Origin: a virus
Strand: one strand, 5' to 3'
Virus genome (UHGV): UHGV-0133447
DNA length: 28,245 nucleotides
In this document: positions 212-20,780 of the stretch, one piece after another
Layout of the letters: each line of letters starts with the position of its first letter
How positions within the stretch are numbered: the stretch's first letter is position 1
Notes under the pieces: generated by a model
Seen by the model: the letters and a program-made list of their open reading frames with translations, nothing else
What the model was told of the DNA's origin: nothing
Databases searched by the model: none
Translations under genes and position numbers: made by a program

Positions 212-1948
212 TCACACAATGATGGGATTACTGAAAAAGTCGTCGATATCGCCAGAATCATCCTCATAGCCTTCGGAGGCACCGATTGCCATAGCGCCCG
301 CTACAATGCCGTCGATACGCCCGGTACTTTTTTTCTTGGCAAAAATTCGGTTTTCTTTCTGATCAGCCTCCGTCACTGCTGAAGCCGCATTCCAGCGAAG
401 ACAAGGGTTCGTCCTGATGATAATGACACTGTCATCAAGCAACTCTTCAAACAATTCGATGGAGTGAGGCATCCACAGCCCGGAATCTTTCGCTTTGTAA
501 TACCCTTGCCCATGAGGGATTAACGGAACAGAAACAGATGCTTCCTCAAGCTCCGGCTCAAGATATTTAATGCGATACTGGTCGAAGGCGATGGCCTTGA
601 TATCAAACTTCTGAGTCAGATCTGCAATGCGCTGGGCAACAAAGCCGTATTTCACTGCTTTGCCAGGTGTGGTGTGGATGTGACCATCTCGCTCCCAGGC
701 GTCATAAGGTACCCGGTCCGTTTTGGCCCGTTCCAGTAACGTATCTTTCGGGGTCCAGAACTCCACCAGCAACTTACGTTGTTTTGGAAAAAACAACGCC
801 AGTGCCGTCAAATCACGCGATCCGGACAGGTCTAAACCGCCATAGCATTCCTCACCTTCCAGTTCATCTGGATCAAAGCTCTCCTCACAACCCATCCAGA
901 CATCACTGCTCATCCACGGATTAGCCGCGTCAACCCACTGACAGAAGTTAAGACGTCTGACGATGCTCTCTTTCGATGGCATCCCGCGGGCCTGAGTCAC
1001 CTGCTCACGAAGATAGCTTTCTTCAAAGGTGTGACCCAGCGAAGGGTTAGCTTTCTTCCAGCAGGACTCATCCTTGAAAGGATCGTCTCCTTCATCCAGA
1101 GAACAAATGAAGGCAAAAAAGCTGTCATCTTCTATCGAACCGGCAGAAACCTTTCGGCCGTATTCGTGATAGTCATAGCAGACACTCGTTTTATCGTGCC
1201 CACTGTTGGTGATCATGAAAATCAGCGCCTGCCGACGACCTTTGGTACCGGCACGCATCATTTCAACAACCTGATTGCTTTTATGCTCGTGAACTTCATC
1301 AATAAGAGCACAATGCGGTCGCGGGCCGGACTGCCCGTCATCTGAACTGATTGGACGAAAGAAGGAACCAGACTGAAGAAAAGCCAGGTTCCATTCCTTC
1401 CCGGCACCACCTGATTTCTGAATACGTGCGGAAAGAGCTGGAGACTGATCGACCATCGCCACCGCATCACGGAAAAGGACCATTGCCTGGTCTTTCTTCG
1501 TGGCAGCGGCATAAACTTCAGCGCGTGCTTCTTTATCCGCAGTGAGACAGTAAAGCCCTATACCCGCAGACAGAGGGGATTTACCGGATCCCTTCCCGGA
1601 CTCCACATAGACCATTCGGAACCGGCGAAAACCTCTGGCGTTTTTCCAGCCAAAAATCGAACCGACGATGAAGCACTGCCATGGCAGCAACACGAAAGGC
1701 TCGCCTTCGAAATCACCACCATTGAGCTTCAGAACTTTCGCAAAATAGTCAATCGAGCGTTGCGCCGCCTCAACATCCCAGTGCAGACCACGGGCATGAC
1801 ATGACTGCAGATCGTTGAGGTGGCGCTGGCATGAGTTACGTATGTCAGGACCAGCCAGTTCTTTGCCCGAGGTTACATCCATCGCATATTGGGTTGCTGG
1901 ATCAACCGAAGAACTTATCGAGCGTGTCCTCTTCGGGGTCTTCGCCAT
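212..1948 (-). CDS. terminase large subunit (HK97-like)
   Basis: 578-aa ORF with Walker-A-like GKGSGKS and ATPase/nuclease-sized architecture. GGTGA Shine-Dalgarno 8 nt upstream of the ATG. Sits between the small terminase and portal genes. Confidence 0.9.
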   Translation of the reverse strand: MAKTPKRTRSISSSVDPATQYAMDVTSGKELAGPDIRNSCQRHLNDLQSCHARGLHWDVEAAQRSIDYFAKVLKLNGGDFEGEPFVLLPWQCFIVGSIFGWKNARGFRRFRMVYVESGKGSGKSPLSAGIGLYCLTADKEARAEVYAAATKKDQAMVLFRDAVAMVDQSPALSARIQKSGGAGKEWNLAFLQSGSFFRPISSDDGQSGPRPHCALIDEVHEHKSNQVVEMMRAGTKGRRQALIFMITNSGHDKTSVCYDYHEYGRKVSAGSIEDDSFFAFICSLDEGDDPFKDESCWKKANPSLGHTFEESYLREQVTQARGMPSKESIVRRLNFCQWVDAANPWMSSDVWMGCEESFDPDELEGEECYGGLDLSGSRDLTALALFFPKQRKLLVEFWTPKDTLLERAKTDRVPYDAWERDGHIHTTPGKAVKYGFVAQRIADLTQKFDIKAIAFDQYRIKYLEPELEEASVSVPLIPHGQGYYKAKDSGLWMPHSIELFEELLDDSVIIIRTNPCLRWNAASAVTEADQKENRIFAKKKSTGRIDGIVAGAMAIGASEGYEDDSGDIDDFFSNPIIV

Positions 1949-8505: not shown

Positions 8506-8581
8506 TGGTGCTGGTTGACGGAATCGAACCGCCGACATCCTGCTTACAAGGCAGGCGCTCTACCAGCTGAGCTAAACCAGC
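8506..8581 (-). tRNA. tRNA-Thr (anticodon UGU), phage-encoded
   Basis: Minus-strand 76-nt cloverleaf GCTGGTT-TA-GCTC-AGCTGGTA-GAGC-G-CCTGC-CTTGTAA-GCAGG-ATGTC-GGCGG-TTCGATT-CCGTC-AACCAGC-A-CCA. Acceptor 7 bp, D-loop GG, anticodon loop with U33 and A37, canonical T-loop, encoded CCA. Confidence 0.8.
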
Positions 8582-9621
8582 AAATTACGCATTTCACTGA
8601 CCGTCTGTTCAAATCTCTCGGTTTCCAGTTCGACACCTAGTCCCCTTCGCCCGAGAAGAGCAGCCTGCTTGAGCGTTGAGCCTGATCCAAAAAAGAAATC
8701 AGCTACAACATCACCCGGGCGGCTACTCGCTGTGATTATCTGCTCCAGCATATCCGCAGGCTTTTCACATGGGTGTTTACCTGGATAAAACTGAACAGGC
8801 TTATGAGTCCAGACGTCGGTATATGGCACCGTGACCGATACGCTGAATGGTCGCCGTAAACGGTAATATTCCTGCTGGAGTTCAGAATATTTTCGGCTTA
8901 ACGATTGCCAGGTGCCGACAAGCTGGTGGTGAGGTTTTCCCAGTTCGTTGCGTGAGTGCTTATCCATGGCGATTGTTTGAAACAAAGCCTGCAACTTTAA
9001 ATAATCGGCTTCGTTCGGTAGCTGCCACTGACTAAGGCCAAACCAGTGGGAAACCATATTTTTCTTACCTGTGGCTTCTGCAATCTGAGCCGACGTCACG
9101 CCAAGAGATTCCCGTGCATCACGGAAGTAAGAAATTAAAGGCGTCATGACGTGTTGCTTTAACTCATTACACTTTGCGGCATATCCATCGTCTTTGGGCC
9201 TGTATGGCCCCTGATAATGGTCGGCAAAAATGATACGCTCAGTGGCCGGGAAATAAGCGCGTAAGCTCTCCTTATTGCAGCCGTTCCATCGCCCTGATGG
9301 CTTAGCCCAGATGATATGGTTGAGCAGGTTAAACCGCTCTCTCACCAACAGCTCAATATCCGCTGCCAGGCGGTGCCCACAGAACAGATACATGCTGCCG
9401 GCAGGTTTTAACACTCGCCAGAACTGTGCCAGACAGCTATCCAGCCAACGTAAATAGTCTTCGTCCCCCTTCCATTGGTTATCCCAGCCGTTTGGCTTCA
9501 CCTTAAAATAAGGCGGATCGGTAACAATAAGATCAATGGAGTTATCGGGTAGCGATGGGAGGTATTGCAGGCAATCAGCATTGATTAACTCAATACTGGA
9601 TATTTTTACAGTATTTTTCAT
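8572..9621 (-). CDS. orphan DNA methyltransferase, N6-adenine/N4-cytosine (beta) class
   Basis: 349 aa with TDPPYF catalytic motif near the N-terminus. No adjacent restriction endonuclease. The ORF's last codons overlap the 5' end of the tRNA. Confidence 0.85.
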   Translation of the reverse strand: MKNTVKISSIELINADCLQYLPSLPDNSIDLIVTDPPYFKVKPNGWDNQWKGDEDYLRWLDSCLAQFWRVLKPAGSMYLFCGHRLAADIELLVRERFNLLNHIIWAKPSGRWNGCNKESLRAYFPATERIIFADHYQGPYRPKDDGYAAKCNELKQHVMTPLISYFRDARESLGVTSAQIAEATGKKNMVSHWFGLSQWQLPNEADYLKLQALFQTIAMDKHSRNELGKPHHQLVGTWQSLSRKYSELQQEYYRLRRPFSVSVTVPYTDVWTHKPVQFYPGKHPCEKPADMLEQIITASSRPGDVVADFFFGSGSTLKQAALLGRRGLGVELETERFEQTVSEMRNLLV

Positions 9622-10172: not shown

Positions 10173-11003
10173 TTATGCGATATTTATCAAATCAGGCACC
10201 TTTGTCACACGTTTAAGCTGTGAGTCGGTATAACTCTCTTCCTCAAAGCATCTTGTAACCAGACTTTCATAGAAAGGTTTCCAGCTATATCGCCAGGTAC
10301 GTTCTGGCAGACCAGGCAGCTCAGAGAGCATACCCCTGTATGCATTCGAAGACTTAGGACGACTATAACCGCGGCCTTCACAACGTTTACACACTTTGTA
10401 GACAGGCACTCCCTGCAGCTCTGACTCTTTACGGTCCAGGGTTTTTCCCGTACCGCCACACTGGCATCGCTTGCTGATTTTCCCGGTGCCGCCACATTTG
10501 AAGCAAAGAACATGGTCAACCTCTTCCACCTGACGTTTTACTTCAAAATCCGAAGGTGACTGCCTGAGGTCTTTTGCCCATTGCGGTAATCTCATTGTGT
10601 AGTGGCTTTTTTCCACCATTGAGGTTTTTTTTATGAAGCCTGAACCAGAACACTTCCTGCAATCTACGCTGTCAGCTGCAGACGAGGCATAGTCGTTATA
10701 AGCGAACCGAGCTATTATCAGCATACACAGCGGGAACTTCTTCCCTGCTGCTTTTCTTATCGATCGAGGCGCTTTTGATTTTGCATATTCAGCCAACCAA
10801 CTGACGGATGCCTTTCTGTCGTGTTCGCTGATTCCAGCTTTACCCAAAAACATTGACAGGCCTATTCCTGCCTCTGCCTGTGTCATCCCCAGAGCCGCCA
10901 TTACATCTGTCACAGTAAGTTGCTCGCTGGCGGTTGCAAGACCGCTATCGGAAATATGCATTCCTTTGGGCGCAAAAAATTTGGGAATTGATTCAATATT
11001 CAT
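10173..11003 (-). CDS. late-gene antitermination protein Q-like (Cys-rich, zinc-binding type)
   Basis: Repeated Cys pairs CRKCSGSG / CFKCGGTGK / CQCGGTGK / CKRCEGRG. Position directly upstream of promoter plus terminator and adjacent to DUF968 resembles Qin-type Q (memory). ATG at 11003 has a GGAG RBS; the track's GTG at 11021 is an alternative start. Confidence 0.65.
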   Translation of the reverse strand: MNIESIPKFFAPKGMHISDSGLATASEQLTVTDVMAALGMTQAEAGIGLSMFLGKAGISEHDRKASVSWLAEYAKSKAPRSIRKAAGKKFPLCMLIIARFAYNDYASSAADSVDCRKCSGSGFIKKTSMVEKSHYTMRLPQWAKDLRQSPSDFEVKRQVEEVDHVLCFKCGGTGKISKRCQCGGTGKTLDRKESELQGVPVYKVCKRCEGRGYSRPKSSNAYRGMLSELPGLPERTWRYSWKPFYESLVTRCFEEESYTDSQLKRVTKVPDLINIA

Positions 11004-11021
11004 GCTCAGTACTCCATACAC

Positions 11022-12077
11022 TCAAGCTTTTACAATGACGCCGATACCCATTACCCGATCCAGAAAACGAGCCCACAGCTCTAACTGAGTGCCATATTTC
11101 TTTTCGAACTCTGATGTATTGGCGTGTAATTCATCGTGATGCACTCTGCACAGTGGTATCACGAAGAGATCATGGGCCTTGGTGCCAGTTCCCCCCAGAC
11201 CATTCCCTATTATATGGTGTGGATCGTCTGAAGGTTGCCTACAGCATTCACATGGCTGAGTTTTAACCCAACGTGTGTAAACTTCGCAGGTCCAGCGCCG
11301 GCGCTTTGGGCGGCGCATAAATGATTCGGGGCTGTTCGGATCGACACTAAGCCTCAGAATGGGTTTACTTTCAATCTGAGGTTGCTCAATGAGTACACTG
11401 GCGTCCGCCAGGTCTATGCCCTCGACAAGATCCTGAAGGATTTCACCTGCAGCTAATGACGGGACAATATCGCTATCCTTATAAACGGACAGGAAAGGTT
11501 CCTCAGGCAGTCTTAAGGCCTGTTGCGCCATCGTCTCGGTTATTGCGTCAGCAATGCCGGATTTCACGGCCCACCAGCAGAGCTCCGCCATCGATAATTC
11601 GCGCTCCTTATTGTATCCAAGGCTGATCAACACCCTTTCAATCACCCACTGAACCAGATTCTGATAAGCCAGCTCTGACAACATTTCGGTGGTCTGCTCA
11701 CGTAATTCATTATCACAATGCCAGCAGACAACCATGGCGCCAGGCGGATGCCGCATAGTCACTAATTCATGGTGGTGATAGTGGGAATGCGGGTACTGGC
11801 ACTCTCTGACATGTCGTAGAAGCCAGGCCTCAAGAGCGTTAATTCCACCAGCTGCGTTAATAACCCTCTCATCCCTCATGAAAAAACGCAGAATGTCCAT
11901 TTCTGCAAGCGGCTGACGTGCATCGGCGATCCGCCCAGTGGGCAGTGTTTTCATCTTCTCTGGCTGGCGCTCTATCAGGACACGACCGCCGGTAAAGAGA
12001 GACATCAATTCGCGGCCTGGTTTAAAAAGAACAACGCCCAGGCGCGGAACAATTTCCGGAGTTAGCAATGCCCGCAC
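11022..12077 (-). CDS. DUF968-family phage protein (YdfU-like) with C-terminal HNH-like Cys/His motif
   Basis: 351 aa from a GTG start. C-terminal CECC...DPHHII...IPLCRVHHDELH motif. Length and position before Q resemble YdfU of lambdoid prophages (memory). Confidence 0.6.
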   Translation of the reverse strand: MRALLTPEIVPRLGVVLFKPGRELMSLFTGGRVLIERQPEKMKTLPTGRIADARQPLAEMDILRFFMRDERVINAAGGINALEAWLLRHVRECQYPHSHYHHHELVTMRHPPGAMVVCWHCDNELREQTTEMLSELAYQNLVQWVIERVLISLGYNKERELSMAELCWWAVKSGIADAITETMAQQALRLPEEPFLSVYKDSDIVPSLAAGEILQDLVEGIDLADASVLIEQPQIESKPILRLSVDPNSPESFMRRPKRRRWTCEVYTRWVKTQPCECCRQPSDDPHHIIGNGLGGTGTKAHDLFVIPLCRVHHDELHANTSEFEKKYGTQLELWARFLDRVMGIGVIVKA

Positions 12078-12619: not shown

Positions 12620-13450
12620 TTACTGCGTGACAACGCCAATGAGCTTTAAAAGCTCAGGAAATTTCGATTCGAAGAAGTGCGGTTGCGTCTCACGTGGATT
12701 TGCCGGGCTGGTGATGTTTTTACCGTACAGACAACCTTTTGCCGTAACAGACCAGAATCTTTTCACGCCATTGATACCCGTTCGGCTGCGGCGCTCCTTC
12801 TGCTCGACTATGCCGTGACCAGCCATAAGGTGATAAGCCTGGTTCGCGGTCATTCTGATGTTGTTAGCTTTAAGCAAAGCGCTAAGAGACAGCGTTGGTC
12901 TGCTGGAACCATCCTGCGCGCCAGCTGGTGCATCAATGGCATATGAAGGCATTAAATCAGGCAGCCCTGCTACCTGCTGAAGCTTCTGATATGCCCCGAG
13001 CTTTGACGAATTAGAGAGATTGAGCATTTTGGATGCAGATTCCAGGAGGATTATGCCAGCCTGAATGCGATCGGTATTGACGGTTGCAGCCCCAGCAGTG
13101 TGGAGCGCGTCAAACGTTCTGATGACCTTCAGATTAAAAACAGCGCTGATCCACATCGCGTAGGCATACACCAACTCACGGCAAACATAGGTACCTTGCT
13201 CATTTCCGCCGCGGATGACACTTACAGGTTCTGAAATATCCGAGTTGCTATTTTGCAACTCGCCTATCAATTGCGCAGTTTGTTCGTTACGGAGCCAGAA
13301 TGCAGGCTTATGGCGGTCAAGGGAGCCGGAAGCACGATGGAGATCGTTTAGGCAATAACGACCAAGGACATCACGACGAACAGAAATACCATCAATAACA
13401 AAAAAAGTGTGATTATTGGATGCAGCAGCACCCATGACGTGGTTAGTCAT
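12620..13450 (-). CDS. KilA-N domain protein (antirepressor-like)
   Basis: N-terminal FFVIDGISVRRDVLGRYCLNDLHRASG...KPAFWLRNEQTAQLI matches the KilA-N pattern (memory). ATG at 13450 has a GGAG RBS; the track start 13462 lacks one. Confidence 0.7.
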   Translation of the reverse strand: MTNHVMGAAASNNHTFFVIDGISVRRDVLGRYCLNDLHRASGSLDRHKPAFWLRNEQTAQLIGELQNSNSDISEPVSVIRGGNEQGTYVCRELVYAYAMWISAVFNLKVIRTFDALHTAGAATVNTDRIQAGIILLESASKMLNLSNSSKLGAYQKLQQVAGLPDLMPSYAIDAPAGAQDGSSRPTLSLSALLKANNIRMTANQAYHLMAGHGIVEQKERRSRTGINGVKRFWSVTAKGCLYGKNITSPANPRETQPHFFESKFPELLKLIGVVTQ

Positions 13451-13538
13451 AGCTTTCTCCATACATTTTTATGTGACGAAGGGCCTGCACGCCCGTTTCG
13501 TTTGCACCCTTTGAGATTACTGGCAAGTTGCATAGACT

Positions 13539-13937
13539 TCAACCTACCACTGAACAAACATCCAGCGTTTTTTTATACGCCGATATGGTGATTTCTACCC
13601 GCCCGCCTTTAACATTCTCACCCCACTCTATAGCCATGCGCTTTACCTGGTTGTCGTCCTCCCAGATACCGGCATAAGTCAAAGCATCAAGAAGTGCCTT
13701 GTTGTAATTGTCCAGGTCACGCCGGCGATAGTCTGGCGGATAGAGAATAATTTCTACAGCTGCTGGCGCGGTAGATGGTTTTGGTATTGCACGCAGTTGC
13801 TCAATGATCGCTGAACGTACTGCATGTTTGAATTTACGGCCGGCTGCGCTGACAAGGTGTTTACCTTTTGCGGGCCCCTTATTTGGGGACCGCCAGTAGG
13901 TGTTCACGCTGGGTGGGAATGGAAGAATAAATTTCAT
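13539..13937 (-). CDS. rusA: Holliday-junction resolvase RusA
   Basis: 132 aa. N-terminal MKFILPFPPSVNTYW plus acidic catalytic region typical of RusA. Start overlaps the upstream stop (ATGA). Confidence 0.9.
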   Translation of the reverse strand: MKFILPFPPSVNTYWRSPNKGPAKGKHLVSAAGRKFKHAVRSAIIEQLRAIPKPSTAPAAVEIILYPPDYRRRDLDNYNKALLDALTYAGIWEDDNQVKRMAIEWGENVKGGRVEITISAYKKTLDVCSVVG

Positions 13938-14410
13938 TCTGCCTCCAGCACTATTTTCAACTCAAACGGAACATCTCCTCCGCAATAGCAGAGCGGGCCA
14001 AGGTCAGACATGAGGCTCCACAGGGTCATTGACGTATAGCCATTTTCGTCTGTTATCGGGGGCGAAAAGTCTCCGAAGATCGCCGGGTGCTGGATTCGAT
14101 TCTCTTCGTGCTGGCTTCTCAAGTAACTTAGAGCTTCGGCAGTAAGTTTCACTTTTACGATGCTGTTGAGATTGACCGATATTTCTCTGGCCAACAGCGA
14201 AGAGGTGATACTGATACCGCGAGAAACCCCGCGGGTAATCTTGATGGCCCCTTTTCTCTCCAGCGCCTTGAGGTGCGTTGCTGCTGCATTGGGGGACCGG
14301 CACCCCAGCATGCCGGTCAGTTCGTAAGTTGTAGGCGGAAAACCATGTTTACGCTGATATTCGATCAGGAGGTCAAGGACCTCCTGCTGCCTTAAGGTCA
14401 AGGAAGTCAT
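13934..14410 (-). CDS. LexA-type N-terminal DNA-binding domain protein lacking the S24 peptidase domain
   Basis: From ATG 14410: MTSLTLRQQEVLDLLIEYQRKHGFPPTTYELTGMLGCRSPNAAATHLKALERKGAI closely follows the LexA DNA-binding-domain pattern. The ~90-aa C-terminal part has no Ser/Lys peptidase motifs. Start overlaps the C5-MTase stop (ATGA). Confidence 0.6.
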   Translation of the reverse strand: MTSLTLRQQEVLDLLIEYQRKHGFPPTTYELTGMLGCRSPNAAATHLKALERKGAIKITRGVSRGISITSSLLAREISVNLNSIVKVKLTAEALSYLRSQHEENRIQHPAIFGDFSPPITDENGYTSMTLWSLMSDLGPLCYCGGDVPFELKIVLEAE

Positions 14411-16389
14411 GCTGCCTGCTCCTCTCTGTTCACGCACATTTCGGGTAAGTTGGCGCGTACCAGCGCTTCGGCGAACGGCGGCGGGACGGCATTGCCACAG
14501 CGCGCGACCTGCTTATCTTTCGCGTATTTCACGCCGCGGTAATCCTGGTCAATGATGTACCACTCCGGAAAGCCCTGCGCCCGATAGAGCTCGTGCGGCT
14601 GCAGCATGCGCATGCCGATATCAACGATGCGGTAAGTCACTCCGCCGATTTCCACCAGCCCGGTGCATTCCTCTCCGCAGTATTCCTGCAGGAACGACAG
14701 CACCTGCTGCGCTCGCTCTTCGTCATAGTCCTCGACCGCCAGAGTCGTTTTAACCTCCCCTACATGCTGGCCACCGGCAGTGATAGTCGGCATCGGCTCG
14801 TCAGTTCGCTGGCCATCGCGGCAGGTTCCGCGCAGCTTAACCAGATGAGAAGCGACTAATGCATGGTGATCGACAGTCGTTACTGAATGCGCTGGCTCAT
14901 CCAGCCCCACGCCAGCGCCCTGATAATTCCCTCCGTAGTGTTTTGCCAGGAACGCACCAACTACAGCATGTTTCCCGCCACCAGCCACAACGGTGCCCAG
15001 CGGCTTATCCAGTCCTGGCACGCGAGGTGCCTGTCCTGGCCGTTCCCCGTATCCCATTTGAATGAGCGTCGGCACAACCAGCTGCGATTTACCTCCGCCG
15101 CCCGCGGTGATTGTTGCGCTAGGCTCATCCGCCCGGTGTCCGATGCTGGCGCCGAACTGCCGGGCGATAACCGGAGCGACGACACAGGCGCGCGATTCTT
15201 TCAGGATGGTGTGAGCGGGTTTATCGAGCGGGCGTGGTTTAGCCTGGTACTCGCTGCCGCCATTGCCAGCCAGGAACGGCGCCAGCTCTGCTTCAACAAT
15301 ACCCAGAGCGTGACCATTCCCGCCCGGGCGTTTTGCGGTACCGGCCGTCACCGTCGGCAACGGATCGGTGACTTCCTGCCCGGTAGCTCCAGTTCGGAAT
15401 TTTGTCAGATGAGGTACCGCAATTGCGTAGCCGTGGGTTTTCGTAATCGTCTGTAGCGGATCGTCCAGCGCCTGTCCCCGGAAACAGTCGTATTTGCCGC
15501 GTGTCGTTGTGTGATTGCACTTCACGATGAACGGCGAAGCGCTTTCGATAACAAAGCGCTGAATGCCGCGGGCAATCCGTTTTAGCGTATTCTCTGCCAG
15601 TGACTTTTTGCGACCGAAGATGCTCGGCGCGGGGATTGACCAGTCTATGCATTCCGCAGCTGTACGCCACGGCTCAAGCTGGCCCGCCAGCACGGCGGCA
15701 GACTTCGGATCCCCGTGCGTGGCTTCCGGCCAGACTATCAGTTTCCCGTCCCGGCGCATCACCATGAAGAACCGCTTACGGATGGTCGGCGCGCCATAAT
15801 CGCAGGCGCGCAGCTCGCGAAAATCGACGACATAACCCAGCCCGGCAATTAAGCGCTTGGCCTGCTCGCTATCCGGTGAAAACTCCAGAAACTCGCAACA
15901 CTCCACCAGTGCAGGATGATCTGCTGGAATACCGGTGGTAAGCATCCCGACAAATGCATTGAAAGTTTCACCGATGCGTGCCGGATCCGGTCGCATTTCT
16001 GCCGCGAGTAACGGACCCCACGTCTTAAACTCTTCGACGTTTTCCAGCATCATGACTCGCGGGCCAACATCCAGCGCCCAACGAATGACGATCCATGCCA
16101 GCCCTCGAATAGCTTTCTCTACTGGTTTAGCACCTTTCGCTTTAGAAAAGTGACGACAGTCAGGCGAGAACCATGCCAGGCCGACAGGCTTGCTACTGGT
16201 AGCGGCTAATGGGGATACATCAAACACACTTTCGCAATAGTGAAGCGTGTCGGGATGGTTAGTGCGGTGCATAGCAACGGCGTTAACATCGTGGTTAATA
16301 GCGATATCAACACTGCGCCCTATTGCCAGTTCAATACCTGTACTGGCTCCACCGCCGCCAGCGAAATTATCGACAATAATCTCACGCAT
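14407..16389 (-). CDS. DNA (cytosine-5)-methyltransferase with long repeat-containing variable region
   Basis: 660 aa. DNFAGGGG (motif I), SPDCRHFS (catalytic Cys), MMLENVEEF (ENV), C-terminal QGFP and GNAV motifs. The intervening ~250 aa carries about six related modules of the form P-x-x-T-I/V-T-A-G-G. GAGGGGG RBS. Confidence 0.8.
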   Translation of the reverse strand: MREIIVDNFAGGGGASTGIELAIGRSVDIAINHDVNAVAMHRTNHPDTLHYCESVFDVSPLAATSSKPVGLAWFSPDCRHFSKAKGAKPVEKAIRGLAWIVIRWALDVGPRVMMLENVEEFKTWGPLLAAEMRPDPARIGETFNAFVGMLTTGIPADHPALVECCEFLEFSPDSEQAKRLIAGLGYVVDFRELRACDYGAPTIRKRFFMVMRRDGKLIVWPEATHGDPKSAAVLAGQLEPWRTAAECIDWSIPAPSIFGRKKSLAENTLKRIARGIQRFVIESASPFIVKCNHTTTRGKYDCFRGQALDDPLQTITKTHGYAIAVPHLTKFRTGATGQEVTDPLPTVTAGTAKRPGGNGHALGIVEAELAPFLAGNGGSEYQAKPRPLDKPAHTILKESRACVVAPVIARQFGASIGHRADEPSATITAGGGGKSQLVVPTLIQMGYGERPGQAPRVPGLDKPLGTVVAGGGKHAVVGAFLAKHYGGNYQGAGVGLDEPAHSVTTVDHHALVASHLVKLRGTCRDGQRTDEPMPTITAGGQHVGEVKTTLAVEDYDEERAQQVLSFLQEYCGEECTGLVEIGGVTYRIVDIGMRMLQPHELYRAQGFPEWYIIDQDYRGVKYAKDKQVARCGNAVPPPFAEALVRANLPEMCVNREEQAA

Positions 16390-17335
16390 GAGCGGTCCCC
16401 CTCATGCTGCCGACCAGCCCACCAGCAACGGTGATGATTTCGCTGGTGGGCACGCGCTCCAGCCACAACTGGTTAATGTGGGCCTTCAGCTTGTTCTGCT
16501 GGGAGAACTCCAGATCCTCTGCGCCTTGTACCTGTCCAAAGACGAGTCCAACTTCCAGTGGCCAGATCCGGGATTCAGGCTCAGCCAATGATGCAACAGC
16601 ATCGGGGATGATCACTTCAGGAGACTGAACTGGCGAAACTGGTGACAGGAATTTTCCTGCAGCAAACTCAGCCAGCGCCATACTTGCGCGCCCTTTTGCT
16701 TCCAGCTCAACGCGATCGATATAGCTAAAATGTTCACCGCGCCAGGTCTTATCAAATACCGCAATGGCCCCGGCAAAGAATGCGCTGGTGGGCTTCTGCT
16801 TTTCGTCGGCCGGCACAAACCACGTTGGGAGATCGAATCCAATACGACCACGAATAAACATGATGTGATCGGCATATTCCGGCCACCATGTTTCACTTGT
16901 TGCTGACTTCACGAGGTAAATGTAACGACCACCCTTTTCACGCTGCTCGGCGGTATAGTTCATAATATGAGTCATGCCAGTGATGGCTTGTTTTTCATGG
17001 TACTGCGAACGGCTATACGGCGGATTAGCAAAGGCCGCTCCTCCGAGTTCTACCAAACGACCAGACCAGTCCTGCGTCAGCGCATTATCTTCAGCGGTAT
17101 ACCATGCCGGACATTTTGTATTGCTGTCGTCTGCAAACAGGTCCAGTACCAGCGGGCCAAACATAGCGTTAACGCCCCAGAACAGCAGATCAGGGGTACG
17201 CCATTGATCCCCGACTTCTTTTAAATAATGCGCACTACGCTGGCGCTGTTCCTCAAGTGCCAGGCAATAAGGGCTGACGGTTTTTGTTAAAGTTTGCTCT
17301 TCTGCGGTCATAGCTTCTTGTACTTCCTGACTCAT
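16382..17335 (-). CDS. phage Dam-like N6-adenine DNA methyltransferase with C-terminal extension
   Basis: 317 aa. WRTPD...FANPPYS motif characteristic of the phage N6-adenine methyltransferase family (memory). AGGGGA RBS. Confidence 0.8.
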   Translation of the reverse strand: MSQEVQEAMTAEEQTLTKTVSPYCLALEEQRQRSAHYLKEVGDQWRTPDLLFWGVNAMFGPLVLDLFADDSNTKCPAWYTAEDNALTQDWSGRLVELGGAAFANPPYSRSQYHEKQAITGMTHIMNYTAEQREKGGRYIYLVKSATSETWWPEYADHIMFIRGRIGFDLPTWFVPADEKQKPTSAFFAGAIAVFDKTWRGEHFSYIDRVELEAKGRASMALAEFAAGKFLSPVSPVQSPEVIIPDAVASLAEPESRIWPLEVGLVFGQVQGAEDLEFSQQNKLKAHINQLWLERVPTSEIITVAGGLVGSMRGTAHA

Positions 17336-17513: not shown

Positions 17514-17972
17514 TCAATCGGAGCACAAGTCACCTCCGCAGTAATTTCCGGCCAGATAGCATGACCCGGCGGAATCATTCATGTTTCTGGCGTTTCGAAC
17601 AGAAGCATTCTTAAGACGCAGGTATCGCTCTCTTGCTTTAGCCGTACAGTTGCTGTCACAAAGTTGCTGCCATACCGTCGCCGCACGGCGGTAATAGCGT
17701 TTCTCTTCCAGCTTTTTGGCTGTCGCTTCAAGGGCGAGAATCTCCCCCGAAAGCCCACCTGGCAGGTACTCTTCAATATCAATGGATCCCGCTACGAAGT
17801 AGATAAACCCACCAGTAACTTCAACGCTGGCAAGTTCCCCGTCGTAGTAAAGGCGATGAACAGCGCTCTTCACTGTTACCGGTTTGGTTTCAGGAAATGC
17901 CGCAGTGATATCGCGCAGCATTTTGCCTGGATTCTTCTCAATAAATTCAAAGATCGACTTGGCTATGTTCAT
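17514..17972 (-). CDS. hypothetical protein with PerC-like C-terminal motif
   Basis: KRYYRRAATVWQQL resembles the RRAA-x-RW signature of PerC-family activators (memory, uncertain). Start overlaps the replication-protein stop (ATGA). Confidence 0.4.
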   Translation of the reverse strand: MNIAKSIFEFIEKNPGKMLRDITAAFPETKPVTVKSAVHRLYYDGELASVEVTGGFIYFVAGSIDIEEYLPGGLSGEILALEATAKKLEEKRYYRRAATVWQQLCDSNCTAKARERYLRLKNASVRNARNMNDSAGSCYLAGNYCGGDLCSD

Positions 17973-18880
17973 CCCCGGAACCCCCGTGGAATCGTGGTTT
18001 GTACTGGACTAATTGAATTAACATCCCGCGGTCTGGTTTTGTCCCACGACTCCCTTGGCGGGCGGCCTTTAGCATCCCAGCGGATGGCGCTTTGCAGATA
18101 TCCCTCGAATTTTTTAGGGCCGAAAAGTGTCTCGGGTCGCATGTACTGGTATTGCTCGTCGTTGCCATGCCAGTGCTCATGCTTGACGTCGATTACCAGA
18201 TTCAAGTCGCTAACGGTATGACCTTCGCGGAGGCGGGCGCGAATGTTCTCCAGTGAGGTCTTAGATTTCTGGTAACGGGAACCGCTGACCAGATTCAGGT
18301 GTGCCAGAACTTCGATCGCGTTATCGGTAATAACAACTTCAGGATCCGGCTTATCGTCGGGTTCCGCAGGAGCCCGACAAGAAGGTTTTTTAGATGACGG
18401 ATCTAATGACGGATCTAATGACGGATCGCCTTCAACCATTGAGGGGTCCTCCCGCAATATTTGAGGGGGTACAGACCCATTATTTGAGGCATCAGAATTT
18501 GACCCCTCAAATTTTGAACCCTCAAATTCTGAGGCATCAAATTTTGATTGTTCACGTGGCGTTGCGTAGAAGATTTTTGCTTCAGCTGCTGCACGTTCAA
18601 GCATGTCCACATTGAGTTTATAAACGTTCGAATTATTCTTTCCACCCACGCGCCGTTCCTGCTTCTTCAGCCAGCCTTTAGCCTGAAGCTTTTTGATAGC
18701 GCTGCGGACAGTATTCTCGCTCTTGGCGCCGATCTGTCGCTGAATAGTGGTTACCGCTGGCCATGACACACCTTCGTCATTACTGAAATCTGCCAGGCGA
18801 GCCATGACCGCTATTTCTGAGATTATCAGCCCTTTGAAAGCGCATGCTTCCCATACGAGGCCGTGTAATTTACTGCTCAT
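17969..18880 (-). CDS. replication initiator / replisome organiser (lambda O-like) containing the origin iterons
   Basis: N-terminal winged-HTH-like domain, low-complexity linker (DPSLDPSLDPS), conserved-looking C-terminal domain. The linker-coding DNA carries tandem and inverted short repeats. GAGGG RBS. Confidence 0.65.
   Translation of the reverse strand: MSSKLHGLVWEACAFKGLIISEIAVMARLADFSNDEGVSWPAVTTIQRQIGAKSENTVRSAIKKLQAKGWLKKQERRVGGKNNSNVYKLNVDMLERAAAEAKIFYATPREQSKFDASEFEGSKFEGSNSDASNNGSVPPQILREDPSMVEGDPSLDPSLDPSSKKPSCRAPAEPDDKPDPEVVITDNAIEVLAHLNLVSGSRYQKSKTSLENIRARLREGHTVSDLNLVIDVKHEHWHGNDEQYQYMRPETLFGPKKFEGYLQSAIRWDAKGRPPRESWDKTRPRDVNSISPVQTTIPRGFRG
18393..18540. repeat. iteron cluster (candidate origin of replication) inside the replication gene
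   Basis: Tandem 12-mers atgacggatcta (18393-18430, about 2.5 copies). Multiple ATTTGAGGG-type repeats in both orientations, e.g. tttgaggggg 18460-18469, ccctcaaatt 18503-18512 and 18519-18528, tgaggcatca twice. Confidence 0.5.
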
Positions 18881-19221: not shown

Positions 19222-19773
19222 TTATTTCTCCATACACAAAGATTTATTCGCCACGACGCCCGGAGCTGCACACTCGCGGGCGTCACTCTTTTCTGGCTGA
19301 CAAAAGACACGGAACAGTAACGTTAAATGTTCCTGCCATTTCGCCATCACCTGATAGCTGTTCTCCTCAATTTGCTCGCGTTCTGCCTGGTCAATTACCC
19401 CATCAGCTGTAGCTTTACGCAGGTACTGCGAGTGTTTTCCTATCCACTCAATGGACTCCATAAGACGCTGGTTAATATCTGCGTTGTCCACGTCTTCAAT
19501 ATCTGCCAACGGAACAAAAACGCCGTTCGAGTGACGCGCTATAGCATTGGCAATATGATTTGACCCACCAGCACGCTGCAGCACCATTGCCCAGCCGAGA
19601 GGGAAAATCTGATCACCATCGGCACGTAAACGGTTAAACAATGCGTTTTCAGTAACGCCCAGCCACTCCGCAGCTTCCACGTAACCACCGTCCAGTTCGG
19701 TGATAGTCTTTTTAATCGCGGCCACCAGCCACGCCGGTTGCTTCTCTACTTTCCATTCAGGTTCTATACCCAC
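19222..19773 (-). CDS. CII-like / YdaT-like early regulatory protein
   Basis: GTG start with strong AGGAGG RBS. Segment ITELDGGYVEAAEWLGVTENALFNRLRADGDQIFPLGWAMVLQ matches the CP76/CII-like HTH pattern (memory). Position immediately after cro. Confidence 0.5.
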   Translation of the reverse strand: MGIEPEWKVEKQPAWLVAAIKKTITELDGGYVEAAEWLGVTENALFNRLRADGDQIFPLGWAMVLQRAGGSNHIANAIARHSNGVFVPLADIEDVDNADINQRLMESIEWIGKHSQYLRKATADGVIDQAEREQIEENSYQVMAKWQEHLTLLFRVFCQPEKSDARECAAPGVVANKSLCMEK

Positions 19774-20105: not shown

Positions 20106-20780
20106 ATGAAAACAATCCAGGAAATCAGGCGGTTAAACGCCAGAAAATTGCGTGATGGTGTTGGCGGTAATATTTACTTCGCCAATATGATTGATCGCGA
20201 GCCTACTCAAACCAGCCGGTTCATGGGAGATGGCGCCACTAAAAACATCGGCGATGCAATGGCAAGGCACATTGAAAAGTGTTTTGACTTACCTACTGGG
20301 TGGTTAGATCAGGAACATCAAACCACTAATGTTGCTAAAACGCCCGATGTCTCTGATACAAATAGAAATATCACCATGGTTCCGGTTATATCCTGGGTAC
20401 AAGCAGGAGCATGGACCGAAGTTGGCTATGCTGAGGTTGATTTGAATAGCACTGAAAACTATCCATGCCCTGTGCCTTGTGGGCCGATGACTTATATTCT
20501 TCGTGTTATTGGCGACTCAATGATCGACGAATATAGGCCCGGTGATATGATTTTTGTTGATCCCGAAGTTCCAGCAGTGCATGGAGATGATGTGATCGCC
20601 TTAATGCACGCTTCTGGTGAGACTACATTTAAACGGTTGATTGAAGATGCAGGACAACGCTATCTAAAAGCACTTAACTCAAATTGGCCAGAACCTTACA
20701 TCAAAATCAATGGTAATTGCTCTATCATTGGCACCGTAATTTTTTCCGGTAAACCAAGACGATACCGAACGAAAACATAA
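20106..20780 (+). CDS. cI: CI-like phage repressor (HTH plus S24 LexA-type peptidase domain)
   Basis: 224 aa. C-terminal VIGDSMIDEYRPGDMIFVD...FKRL carries the Ser/Lys S24 signature. N-terminal HTH region. Divergent from cro. Confidence 0.9.
   Translation: MKTIQEIRRLNARKLRDGVGGNIYFANMIDREPTQTSRFMGDGATKNIGDAMARHIEKCFDLPTGWLDQEHQTTNVAKTPDVSDTNRNITMVPVISWVQAGAWTEVGYAEVDLNSTENYPCPVPCGPMTYILRVIGDSMIDEYRPGDMIFVDPEVPAVHGDDVIALMHASGETTFKRLIEDAGQRYLKALNSNWPEPYIKINGNCSIIGTVIFSGKPRRYRTKT

Follow-up and report, generated by a model that had tools for sequence, protein, structure and literature searches.

Arrays of several target recognition domains (TRDs) within one polypeptide are established for temperate phages of Bacillus, which are the only such cases cited in a 2025 review (PMC12707154) and are described likewise in PMC8936443. 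These multispecific C5 DNA methyltransferases, e.g., M.SPRI, M.Phi3TI, M.Rho11sI, M.H2I, and M.SPbetaI, have one catalytic core with an enlarged region of contiguous T-[LIV] modules between motifs VIII and IX, and they are phage-borne orphans with a presumed anti-restriction role (PMC12707154, PMC8936443). This study concerns the virus genome UHGV-0133447 (28,245 nucleotides, hereafter the window, i.e., the whole stretch of DNA that was analysed) and its C5 DNA cytosine methyltransferase gene, which has the same general layout and carries seven such modules in tandem. Natural variants of the Bacillus multispecific methylases are said, from work of the Trautner laboratory, to differ by whole TRDs, and variation by whole modules is seen in the relatives of the present enzyme as well. 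The Bacillus phage TRDs, as described by Trautner and colleagues in 1996, are reportedly about 38-54 amino acids (aa) long, which is similar to the 30-48 aa found here. A further multispecific C5 methyltransferase, the chromosomal M.BssHII, reportedly has five target sequences (Schumann and colleagues, 1996, cited in PMC7653180). By description, it is likewise a single C5 methyltransferase whose several specificities are assigned to the variable region; it differs in being part of a restriction-modification system, and its five specificities are fewer than the seven modules of the window's enzyme.

The 660-aa protein, with the N-terminus MREIIVDNFAGGGG, belongs to the C5 DNA methyltransferase family. 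It matches PF00145 (C-5 cytosine DNA methylase) with E = 7.8e-19 and 68.7 bits against a cut-off of 22, and its two PHROG matches, phrog_116 and phrog_23072, are both annotated as 'DNA methyltransferase'; with the superfamily model TIGR00675 it scores under the model's own cut-off. Motifs I, IV, VI, VIII, IX, and X are all present in the canonical order, namely, FAGGGG at aa 9-14, SPDC at 75-78, ENV at 116-118, PTIRKR at 201-206, MRMLQPHELYRAQGFP at 593-608 (with QGFP at 605-608), and GNAV at 632-635, and their residues are invariant or nearly invariant across 150 relatives. Motif IV reads P-D-C, with the cysteine at C78, the usual form being P-C. In Foldseek searches with an AlphaFold model, the N-terminal part matched DNMT1, 3g7u, and M.HhaI, and PDB sequence matches cover aa 593-646. 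The protein has the two-domain fold of the family, with the small (TRD) domain facing the catalytic cleft. The catalytic fold and motifs are therefore shared with M.HhaI, M.HaeIII, and the prophage CP-933R enzyme 3g7u, but canonical C5 enzymes carry a single T-L or T-I element, within a small domain of some 80 aa, whereas the present enzyme has seven in about 250 aa. The parts of the gene are as follows, with pLDDT standing for the predicted local distance difference test and HMM for the hidden Markov model that was built from the modules.

14407-16389, minus strand: C5 DNA cytosine methyltransferase gene, 660 aa plus stop, from the list of open reading frames (ORFs)
15520-16389, minus strand: N-terminal catalytic part (aa 1-290) with motif I FAGGGG, IV SPDC (C78), VI ENV, and VIII PTIRKRFF; AlphaFold pLDDT mostly 80-98
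15373-15468, minus strand: module 1 (aa 308-339), LDDPLQTITKTHGYAIAVPHLTKFRTGATGQE, beginning LDDPLQTITKTH; module HMM, independent E-value (i-E) 4e-15
15229-15372, minus strand: module 2 (aa 340-387), VTDPLPTVTAGTAKRPGGNGHALGIVEAELAPFLAGNGGSEYQAKPRP, with an enlarged turn; module HMM
15133-15228, minus strand: module 3 (aa 388-419), LDKPAHTILKESRACVVAPVIARQFGASIGHR; module HMM
15013-15132, minus strand: module 4 (aa 420-459), ADEPSATITAGGGGKSQLVVPTLIQMGYGERPGQAPRVPG, a widespread type with a 'PTLIQTGYGER' tail; module HMM
14905-15012, minus strand: module 5 (aa 460-495), LDKPLGTVVAGGGKHAVVGAFLAKHYGGNYQGAGVG, a widespread type; module HMM
14806-14904, minus strand: module 6 (aa 496-528), LDEPAHSVTTVDHHALVASHLVKLRGTCRDGQR, a hybrid of two modules of 8-module relatives
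14716-14805, minus strand: module 7 (aa 529-558), TDEPMPTITAGGQHVGEVKTTLAVEDYDEE, the sole module placed by AlphaFold; module HMM
14614-14715, minus strand: junction (aa 559-592), a helix (ERAQQVLSFLQEYCG) and a beta-hairpin GLVEIGGVTYRIVDIG leading into motif IX
14410-14613, minus strand: C-terminal catalytic part (aa 593-660) with motif IX MRMLQPHELYRAQGFP and motif X CGNAVPPP; pLDDT 88-96

With P-x-x-[TS]-[IVM]-[TLV] as the anchor, seven tandem modules were delimited between motif VIII and motif IX (aa 308-558; window 15468 down to 14716). They are contiguous and do not overlap, and all seven carry a P..T[IV] core of their own within the enlarged variable region; the conserved Thr positions of the cores are T314, T346, T394, T426, T466, S502/T504, and T535. 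Every module opens with a head, made up of D-x-P-x-x-T-[IV]-T and a Gly-rich turn, and continues with a hydrophobic strand and then a loop that contains G. The pattern [DEK]P..[TS][IV][TLV] occurs seven times, compared with a mean of 0.017 and a maximum of 2 in 20,000 shuffles, and the mean pairwise alignment score of the modules is 32.9 versus 18.2 +/- 0.86 for shuffled modules (z = 17). Identity between the modules is only 18-46%, and Tandem Repeats Finder reported zero DNA-level tandem repeats, by which recent duplication or slippage as the source of the array is ruled out; the two observations together indicate that the duplications are old and that the copies have been kept distinct. A first-pass annotation of the window, made from the letters alone, had described repeated modules between the ENV motif and the QGFP and GNAV motifs, and all four of the peptides that it quoted were found in the protein. 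It had counted about six modules in 14712-15402, and that interval (aa 330-560) does hold six, with a seventh (aa 308-339) just outside its start; it had also called them short and Gly-rich, of which 'short' misleads, as the repeating unit measures 30-48 aa, not 13-16 aa. Its placement of the repeats where TRDs sit is borne out by their position between motifs VIII and IX and by the P-x-x-T-[IV] of canonical enzymes in each of them. We take this module element to be the T-L dipeptide of TRDs (Thr250-Leu251 of M.HhaI). The dipeptide lies against the flipped target cytosine and is the only TRD element that is conserved across C5 methylases.

The repeats are not a peculiarity of one genome, and their lack of conservation among homologues, which the first-pass annotation had named as grounds for giving up its reading, was not observed. 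A HMMER scan of 1.84 billion representatives, with clusters at 50% identity, yielded 2,520 clusters with E <= 1e-30, of which the best 150 span 403-1113 aa. A module HMM built from the modules of the window's enzyme with one iteration (consensus LDEPLGTVTAGGGHHALVAAFLVKYYGGRIGQA) detected 1-12 copies per protein in these 150 representatives, most often 6-7, and arrays with more copies are correspondingly longer. Minimal enzymes of the family are those of the PVJ1 or P0260 type. Position statistics were derived from the 218 near-full-length modules among the 986 found in the 150 representatives. The frame of the module is strongly conserved, i.e., P at position 4 in 100%, T at position 7 in 93%, and a distal G at position 31 in 96%, and V, I, or L follows the T in 87%. 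The positions that define module types cluster in two places, with positions 11-15 in the turn that follows T-[IV]-T and positions 25 and 28-30 in the loop behind the strand or tail. The hosts are mainly Proteobacteria and also include Firmicutes and Myxococcus, and some members come from actinobacteriophages. Named phages with arrays include Pectobacterium ZF40 and Pseudomonas F116 (8 modules each), Myxococcus Mx4 (6), and Gordonia phage Wizard, Vibrio K473, and Marinobacter AS1 (3 each). In most family members, the array closes with a terminal half-module, PxHTxTTKDRxGLVxV, which is fused to the hairpin before motif IX; in the window's enzyme it is replaced by a helix (aa 557-571, predicted secondary structure). 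This minority junction, an acidic stretch and helix '...VRAFLxEYCG...' followed by the final hairpin, is also seen in P0188, P0236, and P0250. Recurring classes of tail are TLIQTGYGERxGQxPR, FLAKHYGGxxG, HLxKLRGTCxDGQ, FLVKYYG, HLTKFRxGATG, and QRQFGxSIGH. The 'PTLIQTGYGER' class, represented by the tail of module 4 (window 15013-15075, minus strand), holds a second P-T-L element, and some modules may thus contain two T-L-like elements. Four long members (P0134, P0174, P0222, and P0267; about 1050-1113 aa) have some 400-450 aa extra at the N-terminus, with the array beginning near residue 680, and may be fusions with another domain, e.g., a Dam-type methylase as in Dmt of phage P1.

Comparison of close relatives indicates how the array varies over short distances. 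The nearest relatives are 'DNA cytosine methyltransferase' clusters of Klebsiella and Raoultella with 84-98% identity, and a protein of Klebsiella phage Kpn_R1 is 89% identical. Over 120 close homologues, identity to the window's enzyme is 94.3% in the module region and 89.6% in the N-terminal catalytic domain; this better conservation marks the modules as being under purifying selection and not as a decaying linker. Among 121 proteins, i.e., the 120 closest clusters (at least 84% identity) and the enzyme itself, five architectures were distinguished, which are set apart by in-register insertions or deletions of whole modules. Such differences, with the reading frame kept, already occur between proteins that are more than 85% identical, and in this natural variation single modules are gained or lost while the rest of the protein is retained. 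The commonest architecture has 8 modules (97 clusters), and the 7-module form is found in 5 of the 121 proteins. Relatives of 695 or 696 aa contain one extra module, in two different alleles, giving an in-register difference of 35 or 36 aa. P0012 exemplifies the 8-module allele, and P0001 has an allele in which module 6 is duplicated. Module 6 of the window's enzyme combines the head of x1 with the tail of x2, two modules found in the commoner 8-module Klebsiella alleles, so that it probably arose by in-register deletion or recombination between adjoining modules. In a 653-aa relative (P0117), an in-register deletion of 39 aa has removed the tail of module 4 together with the head of module 5 and has left one hybrid module. 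The five in-register whole-module architectures at 84-98% identity, together with the range of 1-12 copies, suggest that the modules behave as independent cassettes.

Over longer distances, the same modules can be recognised in proteins whose catalytic domains have diverged much further. Modules 4 and 5 have counterparts in 12-14 distant representatives that exceed the identity of the catalytic domains by at least 10 points, with 65-75% for the modules versus 47-58% for the catalytic domains of the same proteins, and in the clearest examples 72-75% versus 53-58%, so that module types appear as shuffled. Counterparts of module 4 are up to 72% identical where the catalytic domains are about 53% identical, and those of module 5 up to 75% over the whole module. 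They occupy other places in their arrays (1of4, 2of9, 2of6, and 6of9), those of module 5 for instance 2of6, 6of9, and 2of5. Average linkage of 726 modules, used because single linkage had merged all of them into one cluster, gave 190 types at a mean identity of at least 50%. The same type occurs twice in one protein in only 5 cases, compared with 41 +/- 5 expected under random assortment; at a threshold of 40%, the figures are 35 and 104 +/- 7. One type, 'EVRAFLxKYYG', is penultimate in 79 of the 150 proteins (relative position 0.85 +/- 0.16), and the head of module 7 is akin to this near-universal penultimate type.

Compared with the Bacillus phage enzymes, the likeness of the array is one of arrangement. 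The variable region of M.SPbetaI (L003:2916-4247, 443 aa), which was used as a reference, contains two T-[LV] cores, 'SPTLTTMGGGH' and 'EPAFTVNTIDRHGV', spaced 44 aa apart, and the spacing of the cores in the window's enzyme is 32-48 aa. The best BLASTP segment between the two whole proteins lies in this region as well and pairs the 'PTLIQTGYGER' tail of module 4 with the 'PTLTTMGGGHR' TRD core of M.SPbetaI. The catalytic cores are barely alignable, and the Bacillus phage enzymes have 2-4 modules, whereas the present enzyme has 7 and its relatives up to 12. Further differences from the Bacillus phage enzymes are the regularity of its repeat, in which a 33-aa consensus, a strand 'tail' that is conserved, and a distal G-Q can be recognised, and the hosts of its family, mainly Proteobacteria. 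It would work at most by analogy with the Bacillus multispecific enzymes, without membership in their family. The module HMM also matches 'DKPSPTITTQ' of a monospecific enzyme printed in PMC11954522 with i-E 1e-4; in this enzyme, which reads 'WDKPSPTITT...RAISLREAALIQTFP', the element occurs once, just before motif IX. The literature searched contains no description of the family as multi-TRD. A principle that is known from a few Bacillus phage enzymes thus seems to recur, apparently undescribed, in a very large family of mostly Gram-negative phages, with modules that are more numerous and more regular. The phage Dcm that triggers retron Ec86 was also considered; it is a 237-aa enzyme and is unrelated to the module question.

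The reading that we favour for the window's enzyme, with a probability of about 50%, is that of a multispecific orphan methylase with tandem TRDs and an anti-restriction role. The enzyme is regarded as an orphan because no restriction endonuclease gene adjoins the C5 gene. In the proposed mechanism, a single catalytic domain would serve seven diverged TRD modules, each composed of a P-x-x-T-[IV] element, a type-specific Gly-rich turn, and a beta-strand 'tail' with a second type-specific loop. A single module would dock opposite the catalytic cleft, supply its own Thr-[IV], and read its own short DNA sequence, and the enzyme would methylate several different motifs in this way. Expressed in lytic growth alongside the Dam-type and N6/N4-type methylases of the same prophage, it would leave the progeny DNA pre-protected against many host restriction systems. 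The reading draws on the family and position of the array, the excess of modules over chance, their invariant frame, their likeness to the T-[LIV] cores of canonical enzymes and (not significantly) of M.SPbetaI, their cassette-like gain and loss, the shuffled and non-redundant module types, purifying selection, the location of the type-defining positions, and the prophage context. That the modules act as functional TRDs which differ in specificity, that they dock singly, and that the enzyme serves in anti-restriction is inferred. A bolder version can be advanced only tentatively, namely, that the array consists mostly or wholly of functional TRDs, each with a specificity of its own, which would make the family the most multispecific DNA methyltransferases known, with 7-12 motifs per catalytic domain. 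The interpretation of the first-pass annotation is partly supported, as the modules look TRD-like and appear from sequence comparison to behave as cassettes; for the processivity architecture that it also entertained, no positive support was obtained.

Several observations weigh against the tandem-TRD reading. Structure prediction, which the first-pass annotation had proposed as a check, was run with AlphaFold on the window's enzyme with a 45-sequence alignment; it placed the catalytic parts and, with moderate confidence, module 7 (pLDDT about 70-78 over aa 510-556, i.e., module 7 and the tail of module 6), but left modules 1-6 unplaced (pLDDT < 50), so that there is no structural support for these modules reaching the active site. 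Foldseek with this model returned catalytic-domain matches only, and the module profile run against PDB sequences gave only a chance TetR match (E = 0.97) and nothing that connects the modules to a solved TRD by sequence. In M.SPbetaI, the two T-[LV] cores are the top two matches of the module HMM, but not significant ones (i-E 0.47 and 0.67), nor is the BLASTP segment described above (E = 0.02), and common descent of the array with those of the Bacillus phage enzymes could not be demonstrated from these values. Moreover, individual module types tend to occupy particular places along the array, which fits vertical descent of a fixed multi-part domain equally well and weakens the argument from non-redundancy; part of the non-redundancy may reflect an old multi-module ancestor instead of selection for distinct functions. 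The penultimate type and the terminal half-module could alone constitute the working TRD. In the literature searched, no methylation data or methylome was found for the enzyme or any other family member.

The main alternative is a single-specificity enzyme, in which the working TRD is formed by the C-terminal-most module or modules alone, while modules 1-6 extend the small domain and add non-specific DNA affinity, processivity, or scaffolding without reading different sequences. Module 7 and the tail of module 6 are all that AlphaFold docks, in the minimal member P0260 the tails and the terminal hairpin form one beta-sheet that more tails could extend, and the 'EVRAFLxKYYG' type is nearly universal and fixed in position, with other types biased in position as well. 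Nevertheless, we consider this explanation less likely than the tandem-TRD reading. P..T[IV] is kept in every module (P 100%, T 93%), and its counterpart in M.HhaI, Thr250, is by established knowledge tied to the flipped base and not to general DNA binding. The gain and loss of whole modules at more than 85% identity, with the frame kept and with 1-12 copies, is unexpected for a closed fold, and the type-defining loop residues are conserved in distant proteins more strongly than the catalytic domain. A closed repeat fold such as a beta-propeller or solenoid is not indicated either, given the absence of any preferred closure among the copy numbers and the low pLDDT over modules 1-6.

Rather than several defined motifs, many low-specificity modules might together cover most cytosines, which would make the enzyme a relaxed or nearly non-specific cytosine methylase and a C5 analogue of M.EcoGII. 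The small size of the modules fits this, since at about 33 aa, compared with about 80 aa for the canonical small domain, each may read only 2-3 bases, and so does the location of the gene among other methylase genes; M.EcoGII, cited in PMC12707154, is a known case of a non-specific prophage methylase that stays silent in lysogens. We nonetheless regard relaxed specificity as improbable, as it has no direct support and the strong conservation of loops within types suggests defined recognition. Wholesale 5-methylcytosine (5mC) would also expose the phage to McrBC-, McrA-, and Mrr-type restriction, as is well established. It is very improbable, finally, that the upstream modules are decayed remnants of old duplications, i.e., pseudo-TRDs or linker, without present function. 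Inactive 'pseudo' TRDs reportedly exist in Bacillus phage methylases (Lange and colleagues, 1991), AlphaFold confidence over modules 1-6 is low, and some natural alleles are without a module; decay is, however, contradicted by a module region that is better conserved than the N-terminal catalytic domain in close homologues, by frame residues that are invariant across the family, and by module types that persist between proteins with only about 50% identity in the catalytic domain.

Should the modules prove to be functional TRDs, a single phage enzyme would disarm many restriction systems at once, which bears on host range, Klebsiella phage therapy, and prophage gene transfer. How several TRDs share one catalytic centre was left open by the work on Bacillus phages, and the natural series of 1-12 modules together with the near-isogenic alleles that differ by single modules could in that case settle it. 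The 33-aa modules would then also be natural recombining cassettes for reprogramming cytosine-methylation specificity and a parts list for 5mC engineering. If they are not working TRDs, a very common phage methylase would carry in this array an accessory structure that has not been described before.

The C5 gene lies in a lambdoid prophage of Klebsiella/Raoultella type, in an early or nin-like operon setting with two further methylase genes. An E. coli prophage was rejected as the source, as megablast against complete E. coli genomes gave two matches only, both with 76% DNA identity. The other features of the window are listed below.

20106-20780, plus strand: CI-like repressor
19222-19773, minus strand: CII-like activator
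17969-18880, minus strand: O-like replication protein
16382-17335, minus strand: Dam-family N6-adenine methyltransferase, upstream of the C5 gene (PF05869, E = 1e-42)
13934-14410, minus strand: protein of about 158 aa with a LexA DNA-binding domain (PF01726), downstream of the C5 gene
13539-13937, minus strand: RusA (PF05866)
12620-13462, minus strand: KilA-N protein
11022-12077, minus strand: DUF968/HNH protein
10173-11021, minus strand: Q-like antiterminator
8572-9621, minus strand: N6/N4 methylase (PF01555), the third methylase, just downstream of the Q-like antiterminator
212-1948, minus strand: large terminase

The end of the Dam gene and the start of the C5 gene share 8 nucleotides (16382-16389), and the TGA stop of the C5 gene overlaps the ATG of the LexA-like gene (ATGA, 14407-14410); these overlaps suggest translational coupling of the Dam, C5, and LexA-like genes. 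The LexA-like gene in turn overlaps the RusA gene by 4 nucleotides. The start of the LexA-like ORF is probably the ATG at 14410 rather than the GTG at 14437 that had been listed, because the Pfam match begins at aa 10 of the longer ORF. The LexA-like protein is without a recognisable LexA/S24 peptidase domain. A single profile, PHROG 29443, unites the N-terminus of the methylase with the LexA-like protein, which suggests that fused or mis-joined versions of the two exist elsewhere. Dam-type PF05869 enzymes and M.EcoGII resemble the C5 enzyme in being encoded by prophages in the early or nin-like region, without a partner endonuclease and with presumed broad protection (PMC12707154). They are adenine methylases whose breadth is achieved by short or absent recognition, whereas the breadth of the C5 enzyme would come from its module array. 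Three DNA methyltransferases in one prophage represent an unusually heavy investment in DNA modification. A similar arrangement is seen in Pseudomonas phage F116, in which the 8-module C5 gene likewise lies between two adenine methylase genes.

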